64,000 bases of DNA, from IMG/VR virus record IMGVR_UViG_2687453424_000001; one strand, given 5' to 3'. Shown here in pieces: positions 9,959-64,000 of this stretch (position 1 is the first letter of the stretch; each line of letters starts with the position of its first letter). The translations under genes were made by a program, and so were the position numbers. The notes under the pieces are model-generated. The model was given only the letters and a program-made list of their open reading frames with translations, had not been told where the DNA came from and did not search any database. The DNA is from a virus. Taxonomy: Duplodnaviria; Heunggongvirae; Uroviricota; Caudoviricetes.

Positions 9959-10184
9959 GTCTCTCTGCGTCCCAGGAGCCCAGCCCAGCTCAGCAGGAGA
10001 GGCCCAGCCCATGGTGGTTCTGCCTCTGTCCTGCTGGGCTCCCTCCAGGGCTCCCTGGGGCTCCAGGGGAACACCATGGGAAACAGCCTGAAGCAAGCAC
10101 TGATGTTCCTTCCCTCAGCTGGCAGACACACTGCCTGCCTGCAGTGTCATTTCTCTGATGAGAGACAGAGATTGGTCTGAACAA
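9959..10184. repeat. duplicated segment, copy 1 (paralogue at ~55205-55455)
   Basis: Near-identical by eye to 55205-55455 (tctctctgcgtcccaggagcccagcccagctcagcag...gcagtgtcatttctctgatgagagacagag), with scattered substitutions. Confidence 0.7.
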
Positions 10185-10400
10185 CAAGATTTTGTAGGAT
10201 CATGGAACCATTTATTTTGGAAAAGACACTTTAGAACATTGAGTCCACCATTAACCAAACACTGGCAAGTCAACACATGAACCATGTCCATTAGAGCATG
10301 TCTTTTAAATACCTCCAGGGATGGTGACACAACCACTTCTGCAGGCAGCGTTTTTCTTGTCCCATCATCAGACAGGACAGGCAGGCCAGGACAGGCTGGG
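10185..10400 (-). mobile_element. CR1 LINE 3'-terminal fragment
   Basis: Minus-strand ORF ends with CR1 ORF2 C-terminal-like peptide (..PSLEVFKRHALMDMV.., GLNVLKCLFQ); DNA matches the common avian CR1 3'-end pattern; paralogous to 55455-55660. Confidence 0.7.
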
Positions 10401-10660: not shown

Positions 10661-11061
10661 AACGTCAGAAGCCAAGTAGAAACCAGCAGATCAATGCTCC
10701 CACCCAACTTGGTGTTGGCCGCAAATTTACACATCCCAGTATGGAGCAGTGTGGACCAGCTTGCACCAGTACAGACCAACATAGGCCACTATGGCCCCAG
10801 ATACTGCTGGGGTTTTAATATCCCAGTGCTCCCAGTCCCTGCTGCAGGTCTTCCCACTTGCAGCTGTGCTCAACTCCCAATCCCTTCCAGTGCTCCCACT
10901 ACCTGCTGCAGGTGCTCCCAGTCCTTCCCAGTCCCTCCCAGTGCTCCCAGTCCTTGCCACAGGTGCTCCTGCTCATCCCCCACCAGACCTCCTTGGTCTT
11001 TTTCAGAAGGACACCCCAAATTAGGCAACCCCCACTCTGGGGCTGGCCCTGCCGACTCCCT
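10660..11061 (-). mobile_element. CR1-like LINE fragment, divergent subfamily, runs into gap
   Basis: DNA parallels the CR1 ORF2 region seen at 56930-57275 (..cagcagatcaatg.tcccacc...gcaaatttacacatcccagtatggagcag..); cccagtgctcccagtcc direct sub-repeats. Confidence 0.55.
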
Positions 11062-16629: not shown

Positions 16630-16975
16630 GCAGCTGCCCCACGGGGAAACTGGGGGGAGTCACCCGGGAGGCCCAGATCCCTCGTCGGGGCAGGCTGGGT
16701 ATTGGACGGTGAGTGGTGAGCAATTGTATTCTCTCCCCTTGTTCTTCCCCTCACCATTATTGTTACTGGCGGTAGCAGCAGTGGGTTTCAGTTATCCCTT
16801 AGTTACTGGACTGCTCTTATCTCAACCCATGGCAGTTACATTCTTTCCATTCTCCTCCCCTTCCCTCTGGAGCTCGGGGGGCGGTGGGGATGGAGGTCAG
16901 AGGGAGGTGGGGGGAGAGGAAGGAGAGTGAGCGAGCGGCTGCGTGGTTCTCAGTTACCGGCTGGGCTAAACCATG
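16630..16975 (+). repeat. LTR-like interspersed repeat, partial copy (same family as 62075-62595)
   Basis: Aligns by eye to the 3' half of 62075-62595 (..gtattctc..cattatt..ctggcggtagcagcagtg..cttatctcaaccc..). Confidence 0.6.
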
Positions 16976-17950
16976 ACACTCCCCAGACCCACAAATACCC
17001 CCCAAGTGACCCCCATCGAGCCACATCTGCCTGCCAAGTGACCCCCCAGAGACCCCCAGACACACAACTGCCCCCCATGTGACCCCAAATTGACTCCGCA
17101 GACCAACCACTGCGACCCAAGTGACCCTGAAGTGACCCCCCAGACCCACAACTATCTCCAAAGTGACCCCCAAGGGACCACCCATACCTACAACTGCCCC
17201 CAAATGACCACCAAGCAACCACCTAGACCCCCAACTGTCCCCAAATTGACCCCCACGTGACCCCCATCGAGCCACAGCTGTCCCCCAAGTGACCCCAAAT
17301 TGACTCCCCAGACCCACAACTGCCTCACAAGTGACCCCAAGTGACCACCCAGTCCCACAACTGTCCCCCAAGTGACCCCAAATTGACTCCCCAGACCCAC
17401 AACTGCCCCACAAGTTACCCCAAGTAAGCACCCAGACCCACAAGTGCCCTGCATGTGACCCTCCAGACCCACAAATGCCCCCCCAAGTGACTCCAAATTG
17501 ACTCCATAGACCAAAAACTGCCTCTCAAGTGACCCCCCAGTGACTTCCAGAACCACAACTGCCCCCAAGTGTCCCTAAAGATATCCCCATAGAGCCAAAA
17601 ACTGCCCCCCAAGTGACCCCAAATTGACTCCCCAGACCCACATCTCCCGCCAAGTGACCACCCAGGCAAACAACTGCCCCCCCAAGTGACTCCCCAGACT
17701 CAAAACTGCCTCCCAAGTGACACCCTAGACCCACAACTGCCTCCTAAGTGACCCCTGAGTAAACCCGCAGATCCACAACTGTCATTCAAGTGGCCCCCAG
17801 GTGTCCACCCAGACGCACAACAAACCCAAGTGACCCCCAAGTGGCACGTCAGACCTACACCTCCACCTCCAGTGACCTCCCAGTCACCCCCAAACCCACT
17901 CCTGCCCCTCAAATGACTCCCCAGACCCACAACTGCCCCCCAGGTTGGGG
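16975..17950. repeat. tandem minisatellite, ~31-bp unit (caagtgaccccccagacccacaactgccccc) with frequent 11-bp insert (caaattgactc) giving 42-bp units
   Basis: More than 20 degenerate tandem units read directly; same satellite recurs at 63840-64000. Confidence 0.85.
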
Positions 17951-41515: not shown

Positions 41516-44500
41516 NNNNNNNNNNNNNNNNNNNNNNNNNNNNNNNNNNNNNNNNNNNNNNNNNNNNNNNNNNNNNNNNNNNNNNNNNNNNNNNNNNNNN
41601 NNNNNNNNNNNNNNNNNNNNNNNNNNNNNNNNNNNNNNNNNNNNNNNNNNNNNNNNNNNNNNNNNNNNNNNNNNNNNNNNNNNNNNNNNNNNNNNNNNNN
41701 NNNNNNNNNNNNNNNNNNNNNNNNNNNNNNNNNNNNNNNNNNNNNNNNNNNNNNNNNNNNNNNNNNNNNNNNNNNNNNNNNNNNNNNNNNNNNNNNNNNN
41801 NNNNNNNNNNNNNNNNNNNNNNNNNNNNNNNNNNNNNNNNNNNNNNNNNNNNNNNNNNNNNNNNNNNNNNNNNNNNNNNNNNNNNNNNNNNNNNNNNNNN
41901 NNNNNNNNNNNNNNNNNNNNNNNNNNNNNNNNNNNNNNNNNNNNNNNNNNNNNNNNNNNNNNNNNNNNNNNNNNNNNNNNNNNNNNNNNNNNNNNNNNNN
42001 NNNNNNNNNNNNNNNNNNNNNNNNNNNNNNNNNNNNNNNNNNNNNNNNNNNNNNNNNNNNNNNNNNNNNNNNNNNNNNNNNNNNNNNNNNNNNNNNNNNN
42101 NNNNNNNNNNNNNNNNNNNNNNNNNNNNNNNNNNNNNNNNNNNNNNNNNNNNNNNNNNNNNNNNNNNNNNNNNNNNNNNNNNNNNNNNNNNNNNNNNNNN
42201 NNNNNNNNNNNNNNNNNNNNNNNNNNNNNNNNNNNNNNNNNNNNNNNNNNNNNNNNNNNNNNNNNNNNNNNNNNNNNNNNNNNNNNNNNNNNNNNNNNNN
42301 NNNNNNNNNNNNNNNNNNNNNNNNNNNNNNNNNNNNNNNNNNNNNNNNNNNNNNNNNNNNNNNNNNNNNNNNNNNNNNNNNNNNNNNNNNNNNNNNNNNN
42401 NNNNNNNNNNNNNNNNNNNNNNNNNNNNNNNNNNNNNNNNNNNNNNNNNNNNNNNNNNNNNNNNNNNNNNNNNNNNNNNNNNNNNNNNNNNNNNNNNNNN
42501 NNNNNNNNNNNNNNNNNNNNNNNNNNNNNNNNNNNNNNNNNNNNNNNNNNNNNNNNNNNNNNNNNNNNNNNNNNNNNNNNNNNNNNNNNNNNNNNNNNNN
42601 NNNNNNNNNNNNNNNNNNNNNNNNNNNNNNNNNNNNNNNNNNNNNNNNNNNNNNNNNNNNNNNNNNNNNNNNNNNNNNNNNNNNNNNNNNNNNNNNNNNN
42701 NNNNNNNNNNNNNNNNNNNNNNNNNNNNNNNNNNNNNNNNNNNNNNNNNNNNNNNNNNNNNNNNNNNNNNNNNNNNNNNNNNNNNNNNNNNNNNNNNNNN
42801 NNNNNNNNNNNNNNNNNNNNNNNNNNNNNNNNNNNNNNNNNNNNNNNNNNNNNNNNNNNNNNNNNNNNNNNNNNNNNNNNNNNNNNNNNNNNNNNNNNNN
42901 NNNNNNNNNNNNNNNNNNNNNNNNNNNNNNNNNNNNNNNNNNNNNNNNNNNNNNNNNNNNNNNNNNNNNNNNNNNNNNNNNNNNNNNNNNNNNNNNNNNN
43001 NNNNNNNNNNNNNNNNNNNNNNNNNNNNNNNNNNNNNNNNNNNNNNNNNNNNNNNNNNNNNNNNNNNNNNNNNNNNNNNNNNNNNNNNNNNNNNNNNNNN
43101 NNNNNNNNNNNNNNNNNNNNNNNNNNNNNNNNNNNNNNNNNNNNNNNNNNNNNNNNNNNNNNNNNNNNNNNNNNNNNNNNNNNNNNNNNNNNNNNNNNNN
43201 NNNNNNNNNNNNNNNNNNNNNNNNNNNNNNNNNNNNNNNNNNNNNNNNNNNNNNNNNNNNNNNNNNNNNNNNNNNNNNNNNNNNNNNNNNNNNNNNNNNN
43301 NNNNNNNNNNNNNNNNNNNNNNNNNNNNNNNNNNNNNNNNNNNNNNNNNNNNNNNNNNNNNNNNNNNNNNNNNNNNNNNNNNNNNNNNNNNNNNNNNNNN
43401 NNNNNNNNNNNNNNNNNNNNNNNNNNNNNNNNNNNNNNNNNNNNNNNNNNNNNNNNNNNNNNNNNNNNNNNNNNNNNNNNNNNNNNNNNNNNNNNNNNNN
43501 NNNNNNNNNNNNNNNNNNNNNNNNNNNNNNNNNNNNNNNNNNNNNNNNNNNNNNNNNNNNNNNNNNNNNNNNNNNNNNNNNNNNNNNNNNNNNNNNNNNN
43601 NNNNNNNNNNNNNNNNNNNNNNNNNNNNNNNNNNNNNNNNNNNNNNNNNNNNNNNNNNNNNNNNNNNNNNNNNNNNNNNNNNNNNNNNNNNNNNNNNNNN
43701 NNNNNNNNNNNNNNNNNNNNNNNNNNNNNNNNNNNNNNNNNNNNNNNNNNNNNNNNNNNNNNNNNNNNNNNNNNNNNNNNNNNNNNNNNNNNNNNNNNNN
43801 NNNNNNNNNNNNNNNNNNNNNNNNNNNNNNNNNNNNNNNNNNNNNNNNNNNNNNNNNNNNNNNNNNNNNNNNNNNNNNNNNNNNNNNNNNNNNNNNNNNN
43901 NNNNNNNNNNNNNNNNNNNNNNNNNNNNNNNNNNNNNNNNNNNNNNNNNNNNNNNNNNNNNNNNNNNNNNNNNNNNNNNNNNNNNNNNNNNNNNNNNNNN
44001 NNNNNNNNNNNNNNNNNNNNNNNNNNNNNNNNNNNNNNNNNNNNNNNNNNNNNNNNNNNNNNNNNNNNNNNNNNNNNNNNNNNNNNNNNNNNNNNNNNNN
44101 NNNNNNNNNNNNNNNNNNNNNNNNNNNNNNNNNNNNNNNNNNNNNNNNNNNNNNNNNNNNNNNNNNNNNNNNNNNNNNNNNNNNNNNNNNNNNNNNNNNN
44201 NNNNNNNNNNNNNNNNNNNNNNNNNNNNNNNNNNNNNNNNNNNNNNNNNNNNNNNNNNNNNNNNNNNNNNNNNNNNNNNNNNNNNNNNNNNNNNNNNNNN
44301 NNNNNNNNNNNNNNNNNNNNNNNNNNNNNNNNNNNNNNNNNNNNNNNNNNNNNNNNNNNNNNNNNNNNNNNNNNNNNNNNNNNNNNNNNNNNNNNNNNNN
44401 NNNNNNNNNNNNNNNNNNNNNNNNNNNNNNNNNNNNNNNNNNNNNNNNNNNNNNNNNNNNNNNNNNNNNNNNNNNNNNNNNNNNNNNNNNNNNNNNNNNN

Positions 44501-45706
44501 NNNNNNNNNNNNNNNNNNNNNNNNNNNNNNNNNNNNNNNNNNNNNNNNNNNNNNNNNNNNNNNNNNNNNNNNNNNNNNNNNNNNNNNNNNNNNNNNNNNN
44601 NNNNNNNNNNNNNNNNNNNNNNNNNNNNNNNNNNNNNNNNNNNNNNNNNNNNNNNNNNNNNNNNNNNNNNNNNNNNNNNNNNNNNNNNNNNNNNNNNNNN
44701 NNNNNNNNNNNNNNNNNNNNNNNNNNNNNNNNNNNNNNNNNNNNNNNNNNNNNNNNNNNNNNNNNNNNNNNNNNNNNNNNNNNNNNNNNNNNNNNNNNNN
44801 NNNNNNNNNNNNNNNNNNNNNNNNNNNNNNNNNNNNNNNNNNNNNNNNNNNNNNNNNNNNNNNNNNNNNNNNNNNNNNNNNNNNNNNNNNNNNNNNNNNN
44901 NNNNNNNNNNNNNNNNNNNNNNNNNNNNNNNNNNNNNNNNNNNNNNNNNNNNNNNNNNNNNNNNNNNNNNNNNNNNNNNNNNNNNNNNNNNNNNNNNNNN
45001 NNNNNNNNNNNNNNNNNNNNNNNNNNNNNNNNNNNNNNNNNNNNNNNNNNNNNNNNNNNNNNNNNNNNNNNNNNNNNNNNNNNNNNNNNNNNNNNNNNNN
45101 NNNNNNNNNNNNNNNNNNNNNNNNNNNNNNNNNNNNNNNNNNNNNNNNNNNNNNNNNNNNNNNNNNNNNNNNNNNNNNNNNNNNNNNNNNNNNNNNNNNN
45201 NNNNNNNNNNNNNNNNNNNNNNNNNNNNNNNNNNNNNNNNNNNNNNNNNNNNNNNNNNNNNNNNNNNNNNNNNNNNNNNNNNNNNNNNNNNNNNNNNNNN
45301 NNNNNNNNNNNNNNNNNNNNNNNNNNNNNNNNNNNNNNNNNNNNNNNNNNNNNNNNNNNNNNNNNNNNNNNNNNNNNNNNNNNNNNNNNNNNNNNNNNNN
45401 NNNNNNNNNNNNNNNNNNNNNNNNNNNNNNNNNNNNNNNNNNNNNNNNNNNNNNNNNNNNNNNNNNNNNNNNNNNNNNNNNNNNNNNNNNNNNNNNNNNN
45501 NNNNNNNNNNNNNNNNNNNNNNNNNNNNNNNNNNNNNNNNNNNNNNNNNNNNNNNNNNNNNNNNNNNNNNNNNNNNNNNNNNNNNNNNNNNNNNNNNNNN
45601 NNNNNNNNNNNNNNNNNNNNNNNNNNNNNNNNNNNNNNNNNNNNNNNNNNNNNNNNNNNNNNNNNNNNNNNNNNNNNNNNNNNNNNNNNNNNNNNNNNNN
45701 NNNNNN
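41516..45706. other. assembly gap (N run)
   Basis: continuous n. Confidence 1.
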
Positions 45707-47749
45707 GTGGTGACCCCGACGTGATAGCGATGGATGTGAGCCACGTGGTACAGGTACTGGAGGCCCTCGTGCAGCAAGCTGGGTTGCCGAAGGCGATAAA
45801 CTTGGAGCCAGCGGGCCACTGCATCCAATGGTTGCGAGGCCGGGGGGCGGTGGAGGCCCCTGTGGACGTATTAGATACCTCCCGATGGGGACGGATCTGC
45901 CAAGAGCTTTTGGAAGCAGTCTTGGCTGGGGAAAAGAAAGCAGGAGATCTAGGGGAGACGTGGGGTGCCATCAAGAAAGGTGTCTCCGGGAGAGGAGTTG
46001 CAGGAGCAGCTGCGGGACACGGAGGCGCTGCGGGTGGAGGAGCCGCGGGTGCAAGCGCGGGAGCTGTGGAGGAAAGTGCCCCGGGAGGTGCGGCCGGAGC
46101 CCCCGAGCCGCGCGGCCGAGCGGGCAGTGCCGGGGCTGCAGCATGACTGCCAGAAACCGCGGCAAAGGCAACAGCAAAAAACCGGGAAGCGGAGTCTTGT
46201 GAGCCCTGGTAACACTCCCCTTTGTGCGACAGGGCAGGGGACAGGGGGGTTCCCCACAACGAGCGACAGCAACCCTCAAAGCCTACCCTGGGGGAATCCT
46301 CCCTACTAACGACATTGTCTTTATCCTTGGCTACCAGGCTGGAGTGTTTAGTTTGGTTTTGATTTTCTAGAAAAAAAAAAAAAGGTAACCCTTATAGCCT
46401 TTTGAACACGGTGTGTGAGTGCCGTGGTGGACTGTGGACTTGAAACCCCATATACAACTCATTTGATAGTCTCTCTGTGATCCACATGTACTAGAAGTTG
46501 GCAAATATATATCCATGTATATCCATGTTTCTGTTAGCCCTTGGAGAATTTTTATGGATATTGCTGACCACTTCTTCCAATGTAGGCTGGCCACCTGCAT
46601 CGGAATGAGTGTGCATTTTGGTCAGTGTAAAAGCCCAAGGCTCGTGCGATGTGGGGGGGGCAGAGCCTCTGCGGGGACGCCTGCTAAAGTTGAGCCTGCC
46701 GCCTTACACTGCAGTGATGCTGCTTGGAGCTGATTTTTGATTGTCTTCACAGGGTCCTTATGCTACGTTCTGTATGAGGGACCATATAGTGGGAATAATG
46801 ATTGTCTAGGTTTTGTGTTTCAAATATTGTAATTGTATGGAGTGTGCTTGTGGGATCCCATGCGTGTGTGCGTGTGTGTGTGCTGAGGGCGGACAGTGCT
46901 CTATGTATTTTTTGTTGTTGGGTTTGTGTAAAAGTTTTAATGGGTAGCAGATTAACATTTTGGACAAGAAAGGGTTAATGCAAACTGCCGTTGCTGGCAG
47001 GTATTTACTGCTGCTGCTAAGCAGGCAGGCAGCTGTAGCTTCACATTTCTTTCCCATCAGAATGCCTTTGAATCACTTTAACGGGCCTCCTTCTCAGGAG
47101 CTGATAGCGTGGGAGAGGGGGTATGTTTGTGTTCTCCTACCTACAGGTCCATGGCAGCTGCCTGCAAAGTTTGCAAAGCCTTGCCATGAGCTGGACAAAC
47201 AAGTGGAGGAACCCGATGCCTCAGCTACAGAAGCTGACAGTGAATACCCCGAGCAGAATGAGATAGAGGAGAAGAAAAATAAATGATTACAGGACATCAC
47301 TTGAGGGCAACTGAAAAGTAACAACTTGAATATGTGTGCTTGTAACGTAGCTATTATTAGAGGCTGTGATTTTGTGTATAAAACCACTTGTATTTACTAG
47401 CCAGTTGCTAAAGAGAAACTATACCTTGTATTGTGTGCATTTGTTACTTGTAAAAGATGTTAGAGCATGCAAATTTGCAGCAGCTGCTAGAAAATGCTAA
47501 GACAAAAGCTAGAAAGATTCTAATATGATGGTAGTGTTATAAACCAGGTAATGGAACAAATTAAGAGGGTGGAAGAACTCCACTGGTAAGAAAATTCTTT
47601 GGCTAGTTTCTTGCTGCCATCAGCATTTTCAACATGCTGTTGTAACCTGTAATAGTTACTCTGGTAATGTAAATCTGTGTATGCTTTGCCACAGTAGCAA
47701 CTTGTTACTGGATGAAGCAGGTGAAACTCTGCATTGACAACGAGGTACA

Positions 47750-48190
47750 AGAACTGAGGTTGACCAAATGCCTGCTGCCACAGTCAAGGGCAAGACTGGG
47801 TTGGCCTCTGTATTTGCCACCAAGAAGAACCTTTAGCTCTGCTGTTGGCTGCGACCCAGCAGGCGTGGAGCGATGGGGACACATGCCATGCCAGGCCTTG
47901 ATGTGAGGGGATGGCCTCCCCTGTTATCAGAGAGACATCCAGGAGAAAAAGGGCAGACCCAGCAGCCTGTGACTGACCTGTGTTGAAGAAATATGAAAAC
48001 ATGCTAAGATCTTACACATGGTGTATGAGGATGGGCAAGCCTTTTGGCTGGACAATTTGTTAGGTGAATGGGGACTGACAGGTTGGCTGGTTGCTCTAGT
48101 AAAAGGTGGACTAATGGTGTTTATTGTCATTTTAACGATTTTGATTTTGTTGCTGTGTATTTTTAATGTATCCAACGAATGATTATGAGT
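47750..48190 (+). pseudogene. env: ERV env transmembrane-subunit fragment A (membrane anchor and tail; diverged)
   Basis: ..DGQAFWLDNLLGEWGLTGWLVALVKGGLMVFIVILTILILLLCIFNVSNE* resembles the avian retroviral TM membrane-spanning region as I recall it. Confidence 0.5.
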
Positions 48191-48289
48191 GCTACAAAGC
48201 GTGTTTGGCTTGTATAAAAAGAAAAAGGCGGAGATGTGGATGACTTTCTGGCAAAGAACAGCCATGTACCCAGATCAGCAAGTGCCTAC

Positions 48290-48790
48290 GTGGAGTCGGA
48301 CATGAACCAAGGGTCAACAAAAGCTGAAGGAATCCCAGCAAGATAAGAAGGAACTGACAAATGCTACTATGCTTGCACTAAGTGGGCTCTTGACTGATGT
48401 TGATAGTGTTCGTCATGCCACCTTACAAATAGGGCAGCAATCGACTTTTTATTGTTGGCACAGGGGCATGGTTGTGCTGAATTTGAGGGGATGTGCTGCA
48501 TGAATTTGTTAGATCATTTGGAATCAATTTATAAGAGTATACAACAATTGAAAGAGGGGGTTAAATGGCTAACGAAAGATGATGGATGGAGTAGCTATAT
48601 TATGTGTGTTAGTTTTATTTGTATTAGTAGCAAGTTTTATGTTGCGGTGTGTGATATCTATGGTTAAGAAAAATGTAACATCCGTCTGCTTTGCTCAAAA
48701 ACAAAAAGAGGGAATTGTGGAGTGGCTGAGGGACGGTGGATATTTCGTGACCAACCGAGAGGTCAGCCTTAGGAGATGGTGGTTATGAAG
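48290..48790 (+). pseudogene. env: ERV env transmembrane-subunit B (ectodomain with CX6CC motif, membrane anchor, tail), with at least two frameshifts
   Basis: ..[14 protein letters not shown] / [47 protein letters not shown] / [18 protein letters not shown]..; matches ALV gp37 [20 protein letters not shown] from memory. Confidence 0.75.
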
Positions 48791-49189
48791 AATACAGCTG
48801 AACAATGGACATGTGAGCAATCCCAGCTGTTTGGTTTTAGCCAAACTCTGACTTAAGTTGCAAGGTCTGAATTCAAGTTACTCAGGCTGTGAGGCCTAGC
48901 CTTAGGTTACTAAAGGACAGTTACGTGCAGTAGAATAAGGAACTTGGCATTTGCTCAAGGCTAACAAGATGTGGGAGCGGGATGGTGAAACTGCAAGTTA
49001 TGTGAGAAAGGTAGCGAATGGATAATTTTAGCTAGCTTGTTATCTGCTTCAAAATGTGTGGACTGCACTTCTGAGCCAATCACAATCTATATTGGTTACG
49101 TCTAGCCAATAGCAGTTCAATTTCTGGAAGCATATACTGTAGCTACTGTAGCTACTGTGCTACGACAGTGGTCTGTGGACCCCATTGGC

Positions 49190-49900
49190 CATTGAGACTA
49201 CGATGGAATGTGCGCAAGTCCTTTTTCAGGCTTTGTCTGAGCGAGCTGCTGAAATTTGCCCAAATCACTGTAATAGTCATTCGCACATCCCTGGACTCCT
49301 GACTGAAGGTAGCAATAGTGCAGACCGTGTTGCACAAGGTCTGCCAGTTCCTGACTGTTGTGCTCCAGTTTTTATGCGCTATTTACATGTCACGGTTGAT
49401 ACCTGTAGCAGTGTCATTTTGGCTACAGCACAACGCAAGCAAGACGCCAAAGCAGCCATTTTGCATTGGCGCGAGGTCATGGCGATTTTGGGAGTCCCTA
49501 GCCAGATCAAGACCGACAATGGTCCAGCATATTCAAGTCAACTGGTGGCTTCATTTTTATGACAGTGGGGCATTGAGCATAAGACCGGTTGTCCTTATAA
49601 CAGCACTGGCCCAGCTATCGTCGAACGCGCGCACCGGACTCTGAAAGCTCGCCTCGTGTGTCTTGAGGCGGGGGAGACCGTACCCGGAAGAGCTCCCGCA
49701 GTCCGTGTGCGCTGACTTTTACTTTCTGCTCTGACTCGTTTAAATCAATTCTCGCATGGATCAAGTGAACAATCCCCGATGAGCTCGCACTTTGCCTCAC
49801 CTCTAGACAAACCCTCGTATCCACAGGTACGGGTGAAAGATCTGGAAAAGGGCAAGATAGGTCCATTTGCCCTACGTGCTCACGGGTGAGGCTATGCCTG
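49190..49900 (+). pseudogene. pol: ERV pol integrase fragment (zinc-finger remnant, catalytic core, C-terminal region), frameshifted
   Basis: ..ICPNHCNS.., ..YLHVTVDTCSSVILATAQ.., ..ILGVPSQIKTDNGPAYSS.., frameshift, [30 protein letters not shown]; aligns motif-for-motif with ALV integrase from memory. Confidence 0.85.
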
Positions 49901-50371
49901 TGTGGAGGGGGAGACTGGGCTAAGCTGAGCACGGGCAAAATGGTTATTACCGTATTTGTAGCTGTGTCTGTAAGTTTGTATTTGAGCTATGTTTCACAGG
50001 TGGTGATTGGTGCTTGGCTGTATCTGGGAGAGAGTGATGGAAAGAGGTGTGAAATGACATCCATGGCCCTTATGTGTCCAGATGACTTCGCTCACGGATC
50101 CAGTCAAGATGTGCCTTACGAACTTTGTAGCCAGCCGTTGAATACGACATCACTCAGGCCGGAAACACCTGCGTCTAGGTCCCTTTAGGCTGACGCTCTG
50201 TGTTTATTAGTATTAGGATGTTTGTTTCCTTCTTGTTTGATTATGTAATGCGCACTGTGTTTGAATACTTAGTGGCACAAACCTTTCTTACTTAGTTAAT
50301 AAGAGTTATAAGTTGCTTATCTGGAATAGCTGTTAAAACCCTGAGTTTTCTAGTCTTGAGGCGGGGGAGAT

Positions 50372-53300
50372 NNNNNNNNNNNNNNNNNNNNNNNNNNNNN
50401 NNNNNNNNNNNNNNNNNNNNNNNNNNNNNNNNNNNNNNNNNNNNNNNNNNNNNNNNNNNNNNNNNNNNNNNNNNNNNNNNNNNNNNNNNNNNNNNNNNNN
50501 NNNNNNNNNNNNNNNNNNNNNNNNNNNNNNNNNNNNNNNNNNNNNNNNNNNNNNNNNNNNNNNNNNNNNNNNNNNNNNNNNNNNNNNNNNNNNNNNNNNN
50601 NNNNNNNNNNNNNNNNNNNNNNNNNNNNNNNNNNNNNNNNNNNNNNNNNNNNNNNNNNNNNNNNNNNNNNNNNNNNNNNNNNNNNNNNNNNNNNNNNNNN
50701 NNNNNNNNNNNNNNNNNNNNNNNNNNNNNNNNNNNNNNNNNNNNNNNNNNNNNNNNNNNNNNNNNNNNNNNNNNNNNNNNNNNNNNNNNNNNNNNNNNNN
50801 NNNNNNNNNNNNNNNNNNNNNNNNNNNNNNNNNNNNNNNNNNNNNNNNNNNNNNNNNNNNNNNNNNNNNNNNNNNNNNNNNNNNNNNNNNNNNNNNNNNN
50901 NNNNNNNNNNNNNNNNNNNNNNNNNNNNNNNNNNNNNNNNNNNNNNNNNNNNNNNNNNNNNNNNNNNNNNNNNNNNNNNNNNNNNNNNNNNNNNNNNNNN
51001 NNNNNNNNNNNNNNNNNNNNNNNNNNNNNNNNNNNNNNNNNNNNNNNNNNNNNNNNNNNNNNNNNNNNNNNNNNNNNNNNNNNNNNNNNNNNNNNNNNNN
51101 NNNNNNNNNNNNNNNNNNNNNNNNNNNNNNNNNNNNNNNNNNNNNNNNNNNNNNNNNNNNNNNNNNNNNNNNNNNNNNNNNNNNNNNNNNNNNNNNNNNN
51201 NNNNNNNNNNNNNNNNNNNNNNNNNNNNNNNNNNNNNNNNNNNNNNNNNNNNNNNNNNNNNNNNNNNNNNNNNNNNNNNNNNNNNNNNNNNNNNNNNNNN
51301 NNNNNNNNNNNNNNNNNNNNNNNNNNNNNNNNNNNNNNNNNNNNNNNNNNNNNNNNNNNNNNNNNNNNNNNNNNNNNNNNNNNNNNNNNNNNNNNNNNNN
51401 NNNNNNNNNNNNNNNNNNNNNNNNNNNNNNNNNNNNNNNNNNNNNNNNNNNNNNNNNNNNNNNNNNNNNNNNNNNNNNNNNNNNNNNNNNNNNNNNNNNN
51501 NNNNNNNNNNNNNNNNNNNNNNNNNNNNNNNNNNNNNNNNNNNNNNNNNNNNNNNNNNNNNNNNNNNNNNNNNNNNNNNNNNNNNNNNNNNNNNNNNNNN
51601 NNNNNNNNNNNNNNNNNNNNNNNNNNNNNNNNNNNNNNNNNNNNNNNNNNNNNNNNNNNNNNNNNNNNNNNNNNNNNNNNNNNNNNNNNNNNNNNNNNNN
51701 NNNNNNNNNNNNNNNNNNNNNNNNNNNNNNNNNNNNNNNNNNNNNNNNNNNNNNNNNNNNNNNNNNNNNNNNNNNNNNNNNNNNNNNNNNNNNNNNNNNN
51801 NNNNNNNNNNNNNNNNNNNNNNNNNNNNNNNNNNNNNNNNNNNNNNNNNNNNNNNNNNNNNNNNNNNNNNNNNNNNNNNNNNNNNNNNNNNNNNNNNNNN
51901 NNNNNNNNNNNNNNNNNNNNNNNNNNNNNNNNNNNNNNNNNNNNNNNNNNNNNNNNNNNNNNNNNNNNNNNNNNNNNNNNNNNNNNNNNNNNNNNNNNNN
52001 NNNNNNNNNNNNNNNNNNNNNNNNNNNNNNNNNNNNNNNNNNNNNNNNNNNNNNNNNNNNNNNNNNNNNNNNNNNNNNNNNNNNNNNNNNNNNNNNNNNN
52101 NNNNNNNNNNNNNNNNNNNNNNNNNNNNNNNNNNNNNNNNNNNNNNNNNNNNNNNNNNNNNNNNNNNNNNNNNNNNNNNNNNNNNNNNNNNNNNNNNNNN
52201 NNNNNNNNNNNNNNNNNNNNNNNNNNNNNNNNNNNNNNNNNNNNNNNNNNNNNNNNNNNNNNNNNNNNNNNNNNNNNNNNNNNNNNNNNNNNNNNNNNNN
52301 NNNNNNNNNNNNNNNNNNNNNNNNNNNNNNNNNNNNNNNNNNNNNNNNNNNNNNNNNNNNNNNNNNNNNNNNNNNNNNNNNNNNNNNNNNNNNNNNNNNN
52401 NNNNNNNNNNNNNNNNNNNNNNNNNNNNNNNNNNNNNNNNNNNNNNNNNNNNNNNNNNNNNNNNNNNNNNNNNNNNNNNNNNNNNNNNNNNNNNNNNNNN
52501 NNNNNNNNNNNNNNNNNNNNNNNNNNNNNNNNNNNNNNNNNNNNNNNNNNNNNNNNNNNNNNNNNNNNNNNNNNNNNNNNNNNNNNNNNNNNNNNNNNNN
52601 NNNNNNNNNNNNNNNNNNNNNNNNNNNNNNNNNNNNNNNNNNNNNNNNNNNNNNNNNNNNNNNNNNNNNNNNNNNNNNNNNNNNNNNNNNNNNNNNNNNN
52701 NNNNNNNNNNNNNNNNNNNNNNNNNNNNNNNNNNNNNNNNNNNNNNNNNNNNNNNNNNNNNNNNNNNNNNNNNNNNNNNNNNNNNNNNNNNNNNNNNNNN
52801 NNNNNNNNNNNNNNNNNNNNNNNNNNNNNNNNNNNNNNNNNNNNNNNNNNNNNNNNNNNNNNNNNNNNNNNNNNNNNNNNNNNNNNNNNNNNNNNNNNNN
52901 NNNNNNNNNNNNNNNNNNNNNNNNNNNNNNNNNNNNNNNNNNNNNNNNNNNNNNNNNNNNNNNNNNNNNNNNNNNNNNNNNNNNNNNNNNNNNNNNNNNN
53001 NNNNNNNNNNNNNNNNNNNNNNNNNNNNNNNNNNNNNNNNNNNNNNNNNNNNNNNNNNNNNNNNNNNNNNNNNNNNNNNNNNNNNNNNNNNNNNNNNNNN
53101 NNNNNNNNNNNNNNNNNNNNNNNNNNNNNNNNNNNNNNNNNNNNNNNNNNNNNNNNNNNNNNNNNNNNNNNNNNNNNNNNNNNNNNNNNNNNNNNNNNNN
53201 NNNNNNNNNNNNNNNNNNNNNNNNNNNNNNNNNNNNNNNNNNNNNNNNNNNNNNNNNNNNNNNNNNNNNNNNNNNNNNNNNNNNNNNNNNNNNNNNNNNN

Positions 53301-54565
53301 NNNNNNNNNNNNNNNNNNNNNNNNNNNNNNNNNNNNNNNNNNNNNNNNNNNNNNNNNNNNNNNNNNNNNNNNNNNNNNNNNNNNNNNNNNNNNNNNNNNN
53401 NNNNNNNNNNNNNNNNNNNNNNNNNNNNNNNNNNNNNNNNNNNNNNNNNNNNNNNNNNNNNNNNNNNNNNNNNNNNNNNNNNNNNNNNNNNNNNNNNNNN
53501 NNNNNNNNNNNNNNNNNNNNNNNNNNNNNNNNNNNNNNNNNNNNNNNNNNNNNNNNNNNNNNNNNNNNNNNNNNNNNNNNNNNNNNNNNNNNNNNNNNNN
53601 NNNNNNNNNNNNNNNNNNNNNNNNNNNNNNNNNNNNNNNNNNNNNNNNNNNNNNNNNNNNNNNNNNNNNNNNNNNNNNNNNNNNNNNNNNNNNNNNNNNN
53701 NNNNNNNNNNNNNNNNNNNNNNNNNNNNNNNNNNNNNNNNNNNNNNNNNNNNNNNNNNNNNNNNNNNNNNNNNNNNNNNNNNNNNNNNNNNNNNNNNNNN
53801 NNNNNNNNNNNNNNNNNNNNNNNNNNNNNNNNNNNNNNNNNNNNNNNNNNNNNNNNNNNNNNNNNNNNNNNNNNNNNNNNNNNNNNNNNNNNNNNNNNNN
53901 NNNNNNNNNNNNNNNNNNNNNNNNNNNNNNNNNNNNNNNNNNNNNNNNNNNNNNNNNNNNNNNNNNNNNNNNNNNNNNNNNNNNNNNNNNNNNNNNNNNN
54001 NNNNNNNNNNNNNNNNNNNNNNNNNNNNNNNNNNNNNNNNNNNNNNNNNNNNNNNNNNNNNNNNNNNNNNNNNNNNNNNNNNNNNNNNNNNNNNNNNNNN
54101 NNNNNNNNNNNNNNNNNNNNNNNNNNNNNNNNNNNNNNNNNNNNNNNNNNNNNNNNNNNNNNNNNNNNNNNNNNNNNNNNNNNNNNNNNNNNNNNNNNNN
54201 NNNNNNNNNNNNNNNNNNNNNNNNNNNNNNNNNNNNNNNNNNNNNNNNNNNNNNNNNNNNNNNNNNNNNNNNNNNNNNNNNNNNNNNNNNNNNNNNNNNN
54301 NNNNNNNNNNNNNNNNNNNNNNNNNNNNNNNNNNNNNNNNNNNNNNNNNNNNNNNNNNNNNNNNNNNNNNNNNNNNNNNNNNNNNNNNNNNNNNNNNNNN
54401 NNNNNNNNNNNNNNNNNNNNNNNNNNNNNNNNNNNNNNNNNNNNNNNNNNNNNNNNNNNNNNNNNNNNNNNNNNNNNNNNNNNNNNNNNNNNNNNNNNNN
54501 NNNNNNNNNNNNNNNNNNNNNNNNNNNNNNNNNNNNNNNNNNNNNNNNNNNNNNNNNNNNNNNNN
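50372..54565. other. assembly gap (N run)
   Basis: continuous n. Confidence 1.
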
Positions 54566-55204: not shown

Positions 55205-55455
55205 AATAGTCAGGACCCTACAGGAGAGCATCTCTCTGCGTCCCAGGAGCCCAGCCCAGCTCAGCAGCAGAGGCCCAGCCCAAGGTGGCTCTGCCTCTGC
55301 CCGGCTGGGCACCATCCAGGGCTCCCTGGTGCTCCAGGGGAACACCATGGGAAACAGCCTGAAGCAAGCACTGATGTTCCCTCCCTCAGCTGGCAGACAC
55401 ACTGCCTGCCTGCAGTGTCATTTCTCTGATGAGAGACAGAGTTTGGTCTGAACAA
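55205..55455. repeat. duplicated segment, copy 2 (paralogue of 9959-10184)
   Basis: See copy 1. Confidence 0.7.
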
Positions 55456-55660
55456 CAAGATTTTGTAGAATCATGGAACCATTTAGGCTGGAAAAGAACC
55501 TTAAGATCATTGAGTCCAACATTAACCAAACACTGGCAAGTCAACACATTAAGCATGTCCCTTAGAACATGTCTATTAAATACCTCCAGGGTTGATGACA
55601 AAACCACTTCTGCAGGCAGCCTGTTTCTTGTCCCATTATTAGACACCCTCTCACAGTAGA
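55455..55660 (-). mobile_element. CR1 LINE 3'-terminal fragment (paralogue of 10185-10400)
   Basis: Minus ORF ..NGTRNRLPAEVVLSSTLEVFNRHVLRDML..GLNDLKVLFQPK.. Confidence 0.7.
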
Positions 55661-56139: not shown

Positions 56140-57275
56140 GGATCATAGAATCATAGAATCATCCAGGTTGGAAAAGACCTTTAAGCTCTTCCAGTTCAAC
56201 CCTTACCCCAGCACTGCCGAGGCCACCACTAACCCATGGCACTGAGGCCTCGTCTCCATGGAGTGTGAACACTCACAGGGACGGTGACTCCAGCCCTGCC
56301 CTGGGCAGCCTGTTCCAATGCCAGAGCACCCTCTGGGGAAGGAATTGTTCCTCAGCTCCATCTAAACCTGCCCTGGTGCAGCTTGAGGCCGTTTCCTCTT
56401 GTCCCATCCCTTGTTCCTTGGGAGCAGAGCCCAGCCTCTCCTGGCTCCATCCTCCTGTCAGGCAGTTGTAGGGAGCGATCAGGTCCCCCCTGAGCCTTCT
56501 CTTCTCCAGACTGAACCCCCCAGGTCCCTCAGCCGTTCTCCATCACACTGTGCTCCAGGCCCTGCACCAGCTCCGGTGCCCTTCTCTGGCCCCGCTCCAG
56601 CACCTCAATGTCTCTCTTGTTAGTCAGGGACCCAGAGCTGAACACAGGATCCGAGGTGCAGCCTCACCAGTGCCCAGTGCAGGACACAACCACTGCCCTG
56701 GCCCTGCTGCCGCACTGGTGCTGATCCAGGCCAGGATGCTGGTGGCTTCCTGGCTGCCTGGGCACAAGCTGCTCCTGTTCAGCTCCATCAATCAGCACCC
56801 CCAGCTCCTTTCCCATGAGCAGTTTCCAACCGCTCTTCCCCAAGCCTGGAGCATTGCAGGGGGTTGTTGTGGCCCAAGTGCAGGAGCCAGCACTTTGCCT
56901 TCTGGAACCTCATCCCATTGGCCACAGCCCATGGATGCAGCCTGTCCAGATCCCTCTGCAGAGCTTCCTACCCTCCAGCAGATCAATGTTCCCACCTGAT
57001 TTGGTGTCATCTGCAAATTTACACATCCCAGTATGGAGCAGTATGGACCAGTTTGCACCAGTACAGACCAATATAGGCCACTATGGCCCCAGATATTGCT
57101 GGGGTTTCAATATCCCAGTGCTCCCAGTCCCTGCTGCAGGTCTTCTCATTTGCAGCCATGCTCAACTCCCAATCCCTCCCAGTGCTCCCACTACCTGCTG
57201 CAGGTGCTCCCAATCCCTCTCAGTCCTCCCCAGTCCCTCCCAGTGCTCCCAGTCCCTGCCACCGGTGCTCCTTCT
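56140..57275 (-). mobile_element. CR1-like LINE, divergent subfamily, 3' end plus part of ORF2; runs into gap
   Basis: gggatcatagaatcatagaatcatccaggttggaaaagacctttaagctcttccagttcaaccc.. (3' terminus) then CR1-body-like sequence; tail end parallels 10660-11061. Confidence 0.65.
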
Positions 57276-61433: not shown

Positions 61434-62070
61434 ACCCCAAATCAGGCACCCTCCCACTCTGGGTCTGCCCCCCCCAGTCCCTGATATGGGGGGGCGTGGG
61501 GGTGGTGGGGGTGTTGGAATGCCACATGGAGTGTGGTATGGGGACAACAAGGAGCGTTTTGGTACTGGTGGCTTTGGGGGGAGCAGCTTTGTGGGGGCAT
61601 CCCCATTTGGGGTGGGGGTGCTTGGAGGGGCACTTCCAGGATTTGGTTCCCTGGGTTCATTTGGGAGGGCCCGAGGTGATGGTGGGGTGCAGGTCACTTT
61701 TGGGCTGCCCCAGGATCCCCATTTGTGGGTCCTGTCTGCTCTTGTGGTGCTTCAGGAAGATTTGGGGTACCCCAGGATTTTGGGTGGCACCGCAACTGGT
61801 TTGGGTGCCTCCAGGGCCCTTGGGGGGGGCAGCGTGGGTTTGGGGTGCCCCTTATTTGGGGTGCCCCCAGTGGTTTTGAAGTCCCAGAGCACCTTAGGGG
61901 ACCCCCAGGGCGGTGCTGGGGGAACCTTTCTTTTTAGGACACCCCTTTTTTAGTGAATTTGTGCCACTGAGCTGAGCCGGGGCAGCTTTGGAGCTGTGGG
62001 CTTTGGGTTTGGGGAGATTTTGGGGGATCCTGGGAGGATTTTGGGGATTCAGGCTGGTCCCCTTTCCTGG
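61434..62070. repeat. G-rich low-complexity region (TTGGGG / TTTGGGGTGCCCC-like motifs)
   Basis: Recurrent tttggggtgcccc, atttgggg, ttttggggg, gggggg runs. Confidence 0.6.
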
Positions 62071-62074
62071 TTTA

Positions 62075-62595
62075 GCAGTAGCAGTCATTTTTTCTACTGG
62101 TGCAGTGCTGTGTTTTGACTTTCGACCTGGGAATAATACTGATAAAGCTGATGTTTTCAGTTGTGGGTCAGAATGTTTACCCTGACCAAGGACTTTGTGA
62201 GTCTCATGCTGTGCCAGGGAGGAGGAGAAGCCGGGAGGAAGCAGAGACAGGACACCTGACCCAAACTAGCCAAAGAGGTATTCCATACCACAGCACGTCA
62301 TGCCCAGGATGTAGAATGGAGAGGGCCCGGAAGGGCTAGATGACTGCGGGGTGAGGTACCGGTTGGTGAGCGATTGTATTCTCTTCCTTGTTATTTCCTT
62401 TATCATTATTACTATTAGTGGTAGCAGTAGTGATTTGTGTTATACCTTAGTTATTAAACTGTTCTTATCTCAACCCGTGGGAGTTGCATTCTTTCGATTC
62501 TCCTCCCCATCCCTCCAGGAGCGGAGGGAAGAAAGGTGTGGGGGGGAAGTAGACTGCGTGGTTCTGATTTATGGCCTGGGCTTAAACCACAACAT
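62075..62595 (+). repeat. LTR-like interspersed repeat, full-length copy A
   Basis: Reverse complement of 63290-63835 aligns along the whole length; contains a near-palindromic core. Confidence 0.7.
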
Positions 62596-63289: not shown

Positions 63290-63835
63290 CAAAAAAGAAC
63301 TGTCGTGGTTTAAACCCAGTCAGCCATCAATCAGCCACACAGTCTCTCCCCCCACTTCTTTCCCTCCCCCTGCTCCCGGAGGGATAGGAAGGAGAATTGA
63401 AAGAATGTAACTCCCACAGGTTGAGGTAAGAACAGTTTAGCAACTAAGGTATAACACAAATCACTACTGCTACCACCAATAATAATAGTGATAAAGGAAA
63501 TAACAAGGGAAGAGAATACAACACCTCACCACCCGCCAACCGATAACTCACCCCCACCCAGCAGTGATCCAGCCCTTCCGGGTAACTCTCAGTTACCTCC
63601 CGGGCATGACGTGCTGTGGTATGGAATACCTCTCTGGCTAGGTTGGGTCAGGTGTCCTGTCCCTGCTTCCTCCCGGCTTCCCCTCCTCCCTGGCAGAGCA
63701 TGAGACTCAGAAAGTCCTTGGTCAGACCAAACATCGGTGTTATCAGCTCTGTTCCCAGGCTGAAAGTCAAAAACACAGCGCTGCACCAGGTACTAAGGAG
63801 AAAAAATGACTGCTACTTCTGAACCAGGACAGCAC
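63290..63835 (-). repeat. LTR-like interspersed repeat, full-length copy B (inverted relative to copy A)
   Basis: tgtcgtggtttaaacccagtcag ... ccgggtaactctcagttacctcccggg ... gactgctacttctgaac; inverse complement of copy A. Confidence 0.7.
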
Positions 63836-63839
63836 CAAG

Positions 63840-64000
63840 TGACACCAAGTGACCCTCCAGACCTACAACTGCCCCCCAAAGTGACACCCCAGATCCACAA
63901 CTGCCTCCCCAGTTACCTGAAGGAGATTCCTCAGACCCACATCCGCCCCAAGTGACCCCACAGTGACCCCACATACCCACAACTGCCCCCCAAGTGACCC
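63840..64000. repeat. 31/42-bp minisatellite (same family as 16975-17950), truncated by window end
   Basis: ..caagtgacaccaagtgaccctccagacctacaactgcccccc.. units. Confidence 0.8.

Follow-up and report, generated by a model that had tools for sequence, protein, structure and literature searches.

Among the retroviral sequences of bird genomes, the class II (beta-like or 'alphabeta') endogenous retroviruses (ERVs) were surveyed by Bolisetty et al. in 2012 (PMC3482500), and that work describes clustering of avian ERVs as well as frequent cross-clade recombination involving env. Defective avian elements that mix retroviral origins have also been described. EAV-HP and ART-CH are internally deleted elements of this type (Sacco et al. 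2000, as cited in PMC4607243). The locus presented here resembles them in being defective, internally deleted and of mixed origin, but it differs in that EAV-HP and ART-CH are multi-copy elements with two LTRs, whereas here neither an LTR pair nor a second copy was found. The locus lies in a stretch of DNA of 64,000 nucleotides, the whole of which was analysed and is called the window below. It contains two env TM pieces, A and B, which had been noticed earlier. With a probability of roughly 0.8, we read the sequence around them as an accumulation of dead ERV remnants, each of them on the + strand, in which A and B are the 3' ends of two different proviruses of the same orientation, joined by illegitimate recombination or deletion within an ERV cluster.

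The closest comparison is with avian class II ERVs that have an ASLV-type Env. The proviruses of the relatives (contigs L003–L007) carry dUTPase-PR, RT, RNaseH_ERVK, IN, an Avian_gp85 SU and a CX6CC TM. The window copies share several properties with this group: the core of the B TM shares about 60% of its residues with the ASLV TM structure, the polypurine tract (PPT) is located within the env tail, ahead of an LTR that starts with TGTGGA, and a PBS-Trp is found both in L007 and at 45708 of the window. They differ in being fragmentary, without an intact gene, a complete LTR or an SU. The preliminary description had called the two pieces alpharetrovirus-like. This holds for the type of Env, given the match to the structures 4jpr and 5h9c (E = 3e-20), and the PBS-Trp also fits Alpharetrovirus in the strict sense. 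In the reference proviruses pol has beta-like features: L004 and L006, which have this Env, carry dUTPase-protease and RNaseH_ERVK. The nearest relatives of fragment C (see below) are ERVK-like, and the window's own elements have lost the pro region. The combination of a dUTPase-protease and RNaseH_ERVK with an ASLV-type Env fits the beta-like/'alphabeta' continuum of avian ERVs (PMC3482500).

The window is a eukaryotic, bird-type scaffold. Nine runs of N, each 1.6–5.3 kb long, make up about 60% of its length, and the contigs between them measure 1–5.4 kb. Both TM pieces are found in a single island of real sequence at 45707–50371 (4665 bp, ∼4.7 kb), bordered by the N runs 41516–45706 and 50372–54565; its features are listed in Table 1. 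A blastn self-comparison found no DNA similarity between the island and the rest of the visible window, and neither tblastn nor HMM searches revealed another Env, Pol or Gag remnant of this type elsewhere in the window. The island contains no LTR pair, LTR-sized direct repeat, target-site duplication or internal repeat, and it gave no Rfam match. Pfam searches with its X-masked frame translations returned the integrase core only, and exact look-ups of three other ORFs of the island gave no match. The locus is ordinary ERV debris for a bird genome, with nothing functional in it.

Table 1. Retroviral and associated features of the island, in order of position.
Feature	Position	Strand	Basis
tRNA-Trp PBS, exact 18 nt (TGGTGACCCCGACGTGAT)	45708-45725	+	exact match, 1 nt after N run
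Putative gag N-terminus (matrix-like) ORF of provirus #1	45721-46146	+	collinear local alignment
Integrase C-terminal tip and end of pol ORF, class II ERV	47098-47286	+	L006 identity, IN HMM; ORF ends 47286
Fragment E, dispersed avian repeat tied to gamma-like ERV pol, not env	47436-47968	+	L002 similarity
A part 1, TM membrane-proximal region and membrane anchor (…FWLDNLLGEWGLTGWLVALVKGGLMVFIVILTILILLLCIF)	47979-48170	+	HMM; tblastn from 47979 onward
A part 2, cytoplasmic tail in shifted frame (CIQRMIMSATKRVWLV, stop, KEKGGDVDDFLAKNSH)	48167-48268	+	tblastn to relatives' C-termini, hmmalign
A polypurine tract and U3 stub	48216-48270 (PPT 48216-48233; TGTGGA at 48235)	+	motif; L004 similarity
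B part 1, HR1	48310-48428	+	HMM positions 53-78 at 48351-48428, E 4e-9
B part 2, immunosuppressive-domain-like motif, CX6CC loop and HR2	48419-48595	+	HMM positions 76-134, E 5e-31; 4jpr/5h9c
B part 3, membrane anchor and cytoplasmic tail in shifted frame	48585-48788	+	HMM positions 152-208 at 48585-48752, E 1.5e-8
B polypurine tract and U3	48697-49140 (PPT 48697-48714; TGTGGA at 48716)	+	compared with complete LTRs of L004, L007
Tandem repeat TACTGTAGC x3.3 (9-nt) at junction of B LTR and C	49135-49163	+	direct repeat
Fragment C, class II (ERVK-like) integrase remnant, 3 in-frame stops	49200-49904	+	Pfam rve E 1.6e-13; tblastn, HMM

For the TM pieces no Pfam model is sensitive enough; the TLV_coat model reached E 0.0017 with the corrected translation of B, which is below its cut-off. 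A custom profile HMM for Env TM (217 positions, made from more than 50 avian Env TM relatives, the longer ones) was used in place of Pfam and searched against all 1043 stop-to-stop fragments of the window. Reversed fragments served as the control, and the best match among them had E = 0.85. When its frameshifts are corrected, the translation of B is matched by the ASLV fusion TM structures named above, with much weaker matches to syncytin and to filovirus GP2. A search of 5.8 billion proteins gave 89 relatives of B, nearly all of them ORFs without a name or 'hypothetical proteins' in the genomes of birds such as Tinamus, Nestor, Acanthisitta and Apaloderma, with ectodomain identities of up to 77–85%. 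The best full-length relative is encoded on contig L007. Judged by its sequence, B is a real ASLV-type TM.

The preliminary description saw in B a near-complete TM with a GMCC motif, a membrane anchor and a tail. The TM, the motif, the anchor and the tail are all there: an immunosuppressive-domain-like motif is followed by the CX6CC loop at 48425–48496, and the translation of part 3, whose ORF at 48579–48788 is identical to protein P0077, includes AQKQKEGIVEWL. 'Near-complete' is generous, however, as coverage of the profile begins at position 53 of 217 and the first ∼50 positions, including the fusion peptide, are absent. The membrane-proximal positions 135–151 (∼17 positions) are deleted between parts 2 and 3, and two frameshifts interrupt the remainder. 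No counterpart of the fusion-peptide segment of the relatives (e.g. IFAPGVA… in P0002 and P0053) was found in the window. As for where B starts, similarity is firm from 48351–48357 and possible from about 48310; blastn and tblastx similarity to L003, L004 and L007 begins at 48357. A deletion variant without SU is present in B's own family: at 412–2273 of L007, the TM gene follows 42 bp after the integrase gene, with the fusion peptide kept and no SU, in an SU-deleted provirus that has a complete LTR and PBS-Trp. The breakpoint in L007 was considered as the breakpoint of B and rejected, because L007 keeps the fusion peptide.

Segment A had been described as a diverged TM membrane anchor at 47750–48190, and it had been pointed out that the claim would fall if A did not align to Env TM in a proper search. 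It does align. The fragment 47997–48179 matches positions 130–173 of the profile with E = 5.5e-11, as against 0.85 for the best reversed control, and A is a genuine TM remnant, but its coordinates have to be changed: Env similarity is limited to about 47979–48270, and the left boundary had been set ∼230 bp too far to the left, with nothing Env-like in 47750–47970. Matches of the tail in tblastn include those to residues 126–168 of the 173 in P0001 and to residues 144–180 of the 202 in P0045. In total, A covers profile positions 130 to about 205, that is, the membrane-proximal region, the anchor and the cytoplasmic tail, and it is without the fusion peptide and the region of the immunosuppressive domain and CX6CC. 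One frameshift and one in-frame stop (in the tail, at 48215–48217) are found in it. A also differs from the avian class II ERVs in having no close relative in a word-indexed protein search, where no homologue at all was returned, and Pfam gave no match on A. That two TM segments stand in tandem on the same strand is correct; both are on the + strand, about 40–90 bp apart. The longest ORFs in the TM pieces are 54–71 aa, A and B alike are without an intact ORF continuous with SU, and no SU similarity was found upstream of either. With ORFs of at most 71 aa, frameshifts, a stop and deletions, neither piece can give rise to a protein, and the locus cannot yield a functional Env.

A and B have the same orientation, are close to each other and show the same order of anchor, tail, PPT and TGTGGA, and one may ask if a single env TM segment was partially duplicated in tandem at this site, as had been proposed, and the copies then diverged where they stand. 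In a tandem segmental duplication the copies are each other's closest relatives, and this is not what was found. A and B are identical at 7 of the 52 profile columns that they share (13%), yet each is more than 40% identical to Envs from other birds: A to P0035 at 23 of these columns (44%) and B to P0010 at 22 (42%). At the DNA level, no similarity between A and B was found beyond a 25-nt PPT motif. A direct protein alignment of the two anchor-tail regions gave a score of 47 (shuffle mean 27), which 2 of 1000 shuffles reached. The distance between A and B is lineage divergence and not decay in place, since B keeps 77–80% ectodomain identity to sequences from other birds, which rules out neutral decay in place as the cause. 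A duplication at this site can for practical purposes be dismissed, and the comparison identifies A and B as members of different lineages of the same Env type.

It had also been noted that no LTR stands between A and B. This is essentially right, as only the PPT of A and the first 35–75 bp of U3 intervene; this stub, which possibly reaches as far as ∼48310, is the only remainder of the 3' LTR of the provirus to which A is assigned below (provirus #1). The two pieces close with near-identical motifs, AAAAAGAAAAAGGCGGAGA followed by TGTGGA at 48216–48240 in A and AAAAACAAAAAGAGGGAAT followed by TGTGGA at 48697–48721 in B. In the reference proviruses L004 and L007, the U3 after the PPT starts in the same way as in both window copies, and their LTR then continues with two CCAAT boxes, a TATA box and AATAAA before the PBS is reached. 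The tail, PPT and U3 of A are 87.5% identical in DNA to the PPT and U3 start of L004, with similarity ending by ∼48268. More is kept of the LTR of B, where ∼430 bp of U3 include CCAAT boxes at 49076 and 49106, with no TATA consensus, poly(A) signal, R or U5. The usual proviral layout, with a PBS after the 5' LTR and a PPT before the 3' LTR, is seen here in the PBS at the start of the island and in the two PPTs, each followed by TGTGGA. Two complete LTRs and a target-site duplication are not found in the island; the 5' LTR of provirus #1 would fall in the N run.

In a scaffold of this quality, the adjacency of A and B could be an artefact, and mis-assembly was among the explanations offered at the outset. 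This can be addressed with a Logan contig from another sequencing run (logan:ERR315659_384, 1247 bp, L001), which was reached via P0077. It equals 47886–49132 of the window at 99.92% identity and without gaps, and the sole difference is C/T at 48852. L001 covers the E-A and A-B junctions and the U3 of B, and stops short of the B-C junction (49140–49200). ERR315659 is listed as a run of a Legionella pneumophila isolate (PMC3877988), and the bird DNA in it is contamination. The adjacency of A and B is reproduced in this second assembly. An assembly chimera, in which reads from two ERV loci were joined although A and B are separate in the genome, would be in line with the strong fragmentation of the scaffold, more than half of which is N. 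It would also be in line with the last 18 nt of the island (50353–50370), just before the N run, which are an exact copy of 49660–49677 inside the integrase remnant and show that repeats affected the ends of this contig; the copy is probably a terminating repeated k-mer or a gap-closing artefact. On the other hand, L001 stems from a different assembler and from a run of a different project, it is not simply the same consensus since it has one transition, and the A-B junction is located mid-contig, with no repeat common to other visible parts of the window. We consider mis-assembly at the level of this contig very unlikely.

To the left of A, the sequence has another origin. Fragment E (533 bp) is 72% identical in DNA to positions 27–566 of contig L002 (E 6e-81), which has a gene with MLVIN_C, the MLV-type integrase C-terminal domain, downstream of the E-like stretch. 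A search of 1.84 billion library proteins gave two significant relatives of ORF 47712–47906. One of them carries an RT_RNaseH_2 domain, and L002 is the contig that encodes a cluster-mate of the other (P0117). In P0116, an RT_RNaseH_2 domain is joined to E-like sequence. The left half of what was first described as segment A is thus a different repeat, associated with gamma-like ERV pol. The possibility that E and A together form one gamma-like provirus was rejected, since the nearest relative of A sits in a class II provirus and the two belong to different classes.

Further upstream, several pieces can be assigned to the provirus that A belongs to. The 18-mer at the beginning of the island is the PBS of ASLV (tRNA-Trp); in L007 this PBS follows immediately on the LTR, with 1 mismatch. 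We let the internal region of provirus #1 begin at the site in the window. The N run before it stops one base short of the PBS, where an LTR is expected; contig breaks at collapsed LTR repeats could account for this. The ORF that follows the PBS gave no Pfam or PDB match, but aligned locally to residues 27–77 of the L006 gag with a score of 56 (shuffle maximum 53, n=1000) and to the L004 gag with a score of 44, which was reached by 2 of 1000 shuffles. With moderate confidence, this ORF is predicted to be the gag N-terminus of provirus #1. For the pol end, 47098–47181 is 61% identical to residues 346–373 of the L006 integrase (E 6e-7), and the IN HMM matched the tip with E 0.049, the best control being 1.8. 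An earlier candidate for the same region, a host terminal exon at 46960–47286, was rejected, the ORF being the C-terminal tip of an integrase. A further candidate, an integrase-core motif at 46246–46292 (GVPHN…ERATATLKAY), would strengthen the case for a collinear provirus, but it had weak tblastn matches only and HMM support was absent. The stretch 46150–47060, with no similarity to anything found, may hold an unrelated insertion; within it there is an A14 run after a short palindrome (46363–46384) and a (GT)n microsatellite (46861–46882).

Because PBS, gag, integrase end, TM C-terminus, PPT and U3 stand in proviral order, the best reading makes A the 3' end of a class II provirus that is old, has internal deletions and would be collinear from the PBS onward. 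Provirus #1 would then consist of the PBS, the gag N-terminus, the integrase tip with the pol stop, the foreign gamma-like repeat in the place of SU, the TM C-terminus, the PPT and the U3 stub.

On the other side of B, what fragment C retains of an integrase is the zinc domain's second half, followed by the core and C-terminal domain, and a homologue search placed its nearest relatives among ERVK-like sequences. C is a third, 5'-truncated provirus (#3), present from the integrase onward and running into the next N run. A second PBS with a gag start at 49170–49215, which would complete the LTR of B, was also considered. It was rejected, since its alignment score of 35 stayed below that of the best shuffle (37) and a poly(A) signal is absent.

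The joins between these fragments can be located quite well. E ends at 47968 and A starts at ∼47979; the similarity of A ends at ∼48268 and B begins at ∼48310–48357, so that breakpoint positions are resolved to within 10–90 bp. All joins are non-homologous and lie inside coding regions or U3, and neither LTR termini nor target-site duplications nor repeats mark them. This is different from classical nesting, which leaves LTR termini and target-site duplications at the boundaries; with boundaries inside coding regions and U3, it is deletions and not simple insertions that define the joins. In other respects the locus is like the clustered ERV remnants of gene-poor, low-recombination bird regions, with several lineages packed into 4.7 kb of a scaffold that is rich in repeats and poorly assembled. 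A similar series of remnants is found in a 17-kb contig from an ENA assembly (L005, 1–16858), which holds at least three successive class II ERV remnants of the same orientation (RNase H / TM / RNase H-IN-SU / RT-RNase H). It follows that head-to-tail clusters of the class II ERV family of A and B occur elsewhere, and this supports the cluster reading here, as do the nearest relatives of A and B, both in class II proviruses (L004, L006, L007).

Recombination between ERVs, the remaining explanation in the preliminary description, is therefore supported in a broad sense, as an illegitimate join or deletion between two different proviruses of the same orientation. The most likely cause of the A-B and B-C joins would be illegitimate recombination or deletion between same-orientation proviruses that were close to each other. 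Provirus #2, represented by B, would be of a different lineage from #1 and be left with its 3' end, from the TM at HR1 through the PPT and ∼430 bp of U3. The event would have removed most of the 3' LTR of #1 together with the 5' LTR, gag, pol and SU of #2, and provirus #3 would begin where the LTR of B is cut before R. We infer that the joins were made by deletions in the genome rather than by events before integration.

The shared orientation of the fragments does not help much in this decision, as it is not significant at 3–4 independent elements and is equally expected of a mosaic formed before integration. In such a mosaic, RT would have switched templates non-homologously between co-packaged RNAs of different ERVs, giving one non-autonomous chimera with two TM pieces, similar in kind to ART-CH or EAV-HP, that integrated as a unit and was maybe copied. 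The joins of the locus, all of them clean, on the same strand and lacking LTR termini, would suit such a chimera, and recombinants between ERV clades that involve env are frequent in birds (PMC3482500). That a 1.2-kb contig of exactly this stretch came out of a Legionella run with only a few hundred contigs, from bird DNA that must be contamination, could hint at an elevated copy number. A second copy was, however, not found, and the cluster of P0077 has 1 member on 1 contig. Two scans with junction-spanning patterns and one for the CX6CC loop of B gave no match in metagenome and genome contigs, although these collections hold bird DNA only incidentally. A truncated internal U3 followed by an integrase, as in B and C, would be awkward for a replicating element to need or retain, and neither a pair of LTRs nor a target-site duplication can be seen at its flanks. 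On balance an origin before integration seems unlikely. A more specific version, in which E, A, B and possibly C form a template-switch chimera of different ERV lineages, non-autonomous and later mobilised to multiple copies, would explain the assembly of the region from trace bird DNA in an unrelated bacterial run; we regard it as distinctly improbable. If a mosaic element of this kind were real, it would be a modest new example of non-autonomous retroelements built by recombination in birds.

With deletion between neighbouring proviruses as the preferred reading, the locus adds two undescribed, degenerate copies to those avian class II ERVs that have an ASLV-type Env, and would be an example of deletions that bring the 3' ends of two env genes next to each other. 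It has little importance beyond annotation. For annotation, it calls for some caution: 'duplicate' viral gene fragments on the same strand in fragmented bird assemblies are best taken as clustered ERV remnants, unless the copies are mutual closest relatives.

Some other repeats in the window may be mentioned. In its last island, a tRNA-Lys1,2-type PBS-like sequence with 1 mismatch (TGGTGCCCAACGTGGGGC) is found on the - strand at 63291–63274, which suggests another LTR element in the opposite orientation. An inverted repeat of ∼530 bp with 80% identity (62062–62594 / 63832–63301) lies near this site. Two satellite-like tandem arrays, at 16972–17945 and 63835–64000, have a mutual identity of about 70–85%. 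Finally, there are two collinear direct repeats ∼45 kb apart, 9960–10374 with 55231–55645 (92.5%) and 10683–10973 with 56975–57275 (89%). Each of them adjoins an N run; segmental duplication is one possible origin, membership of a single repeat family another.
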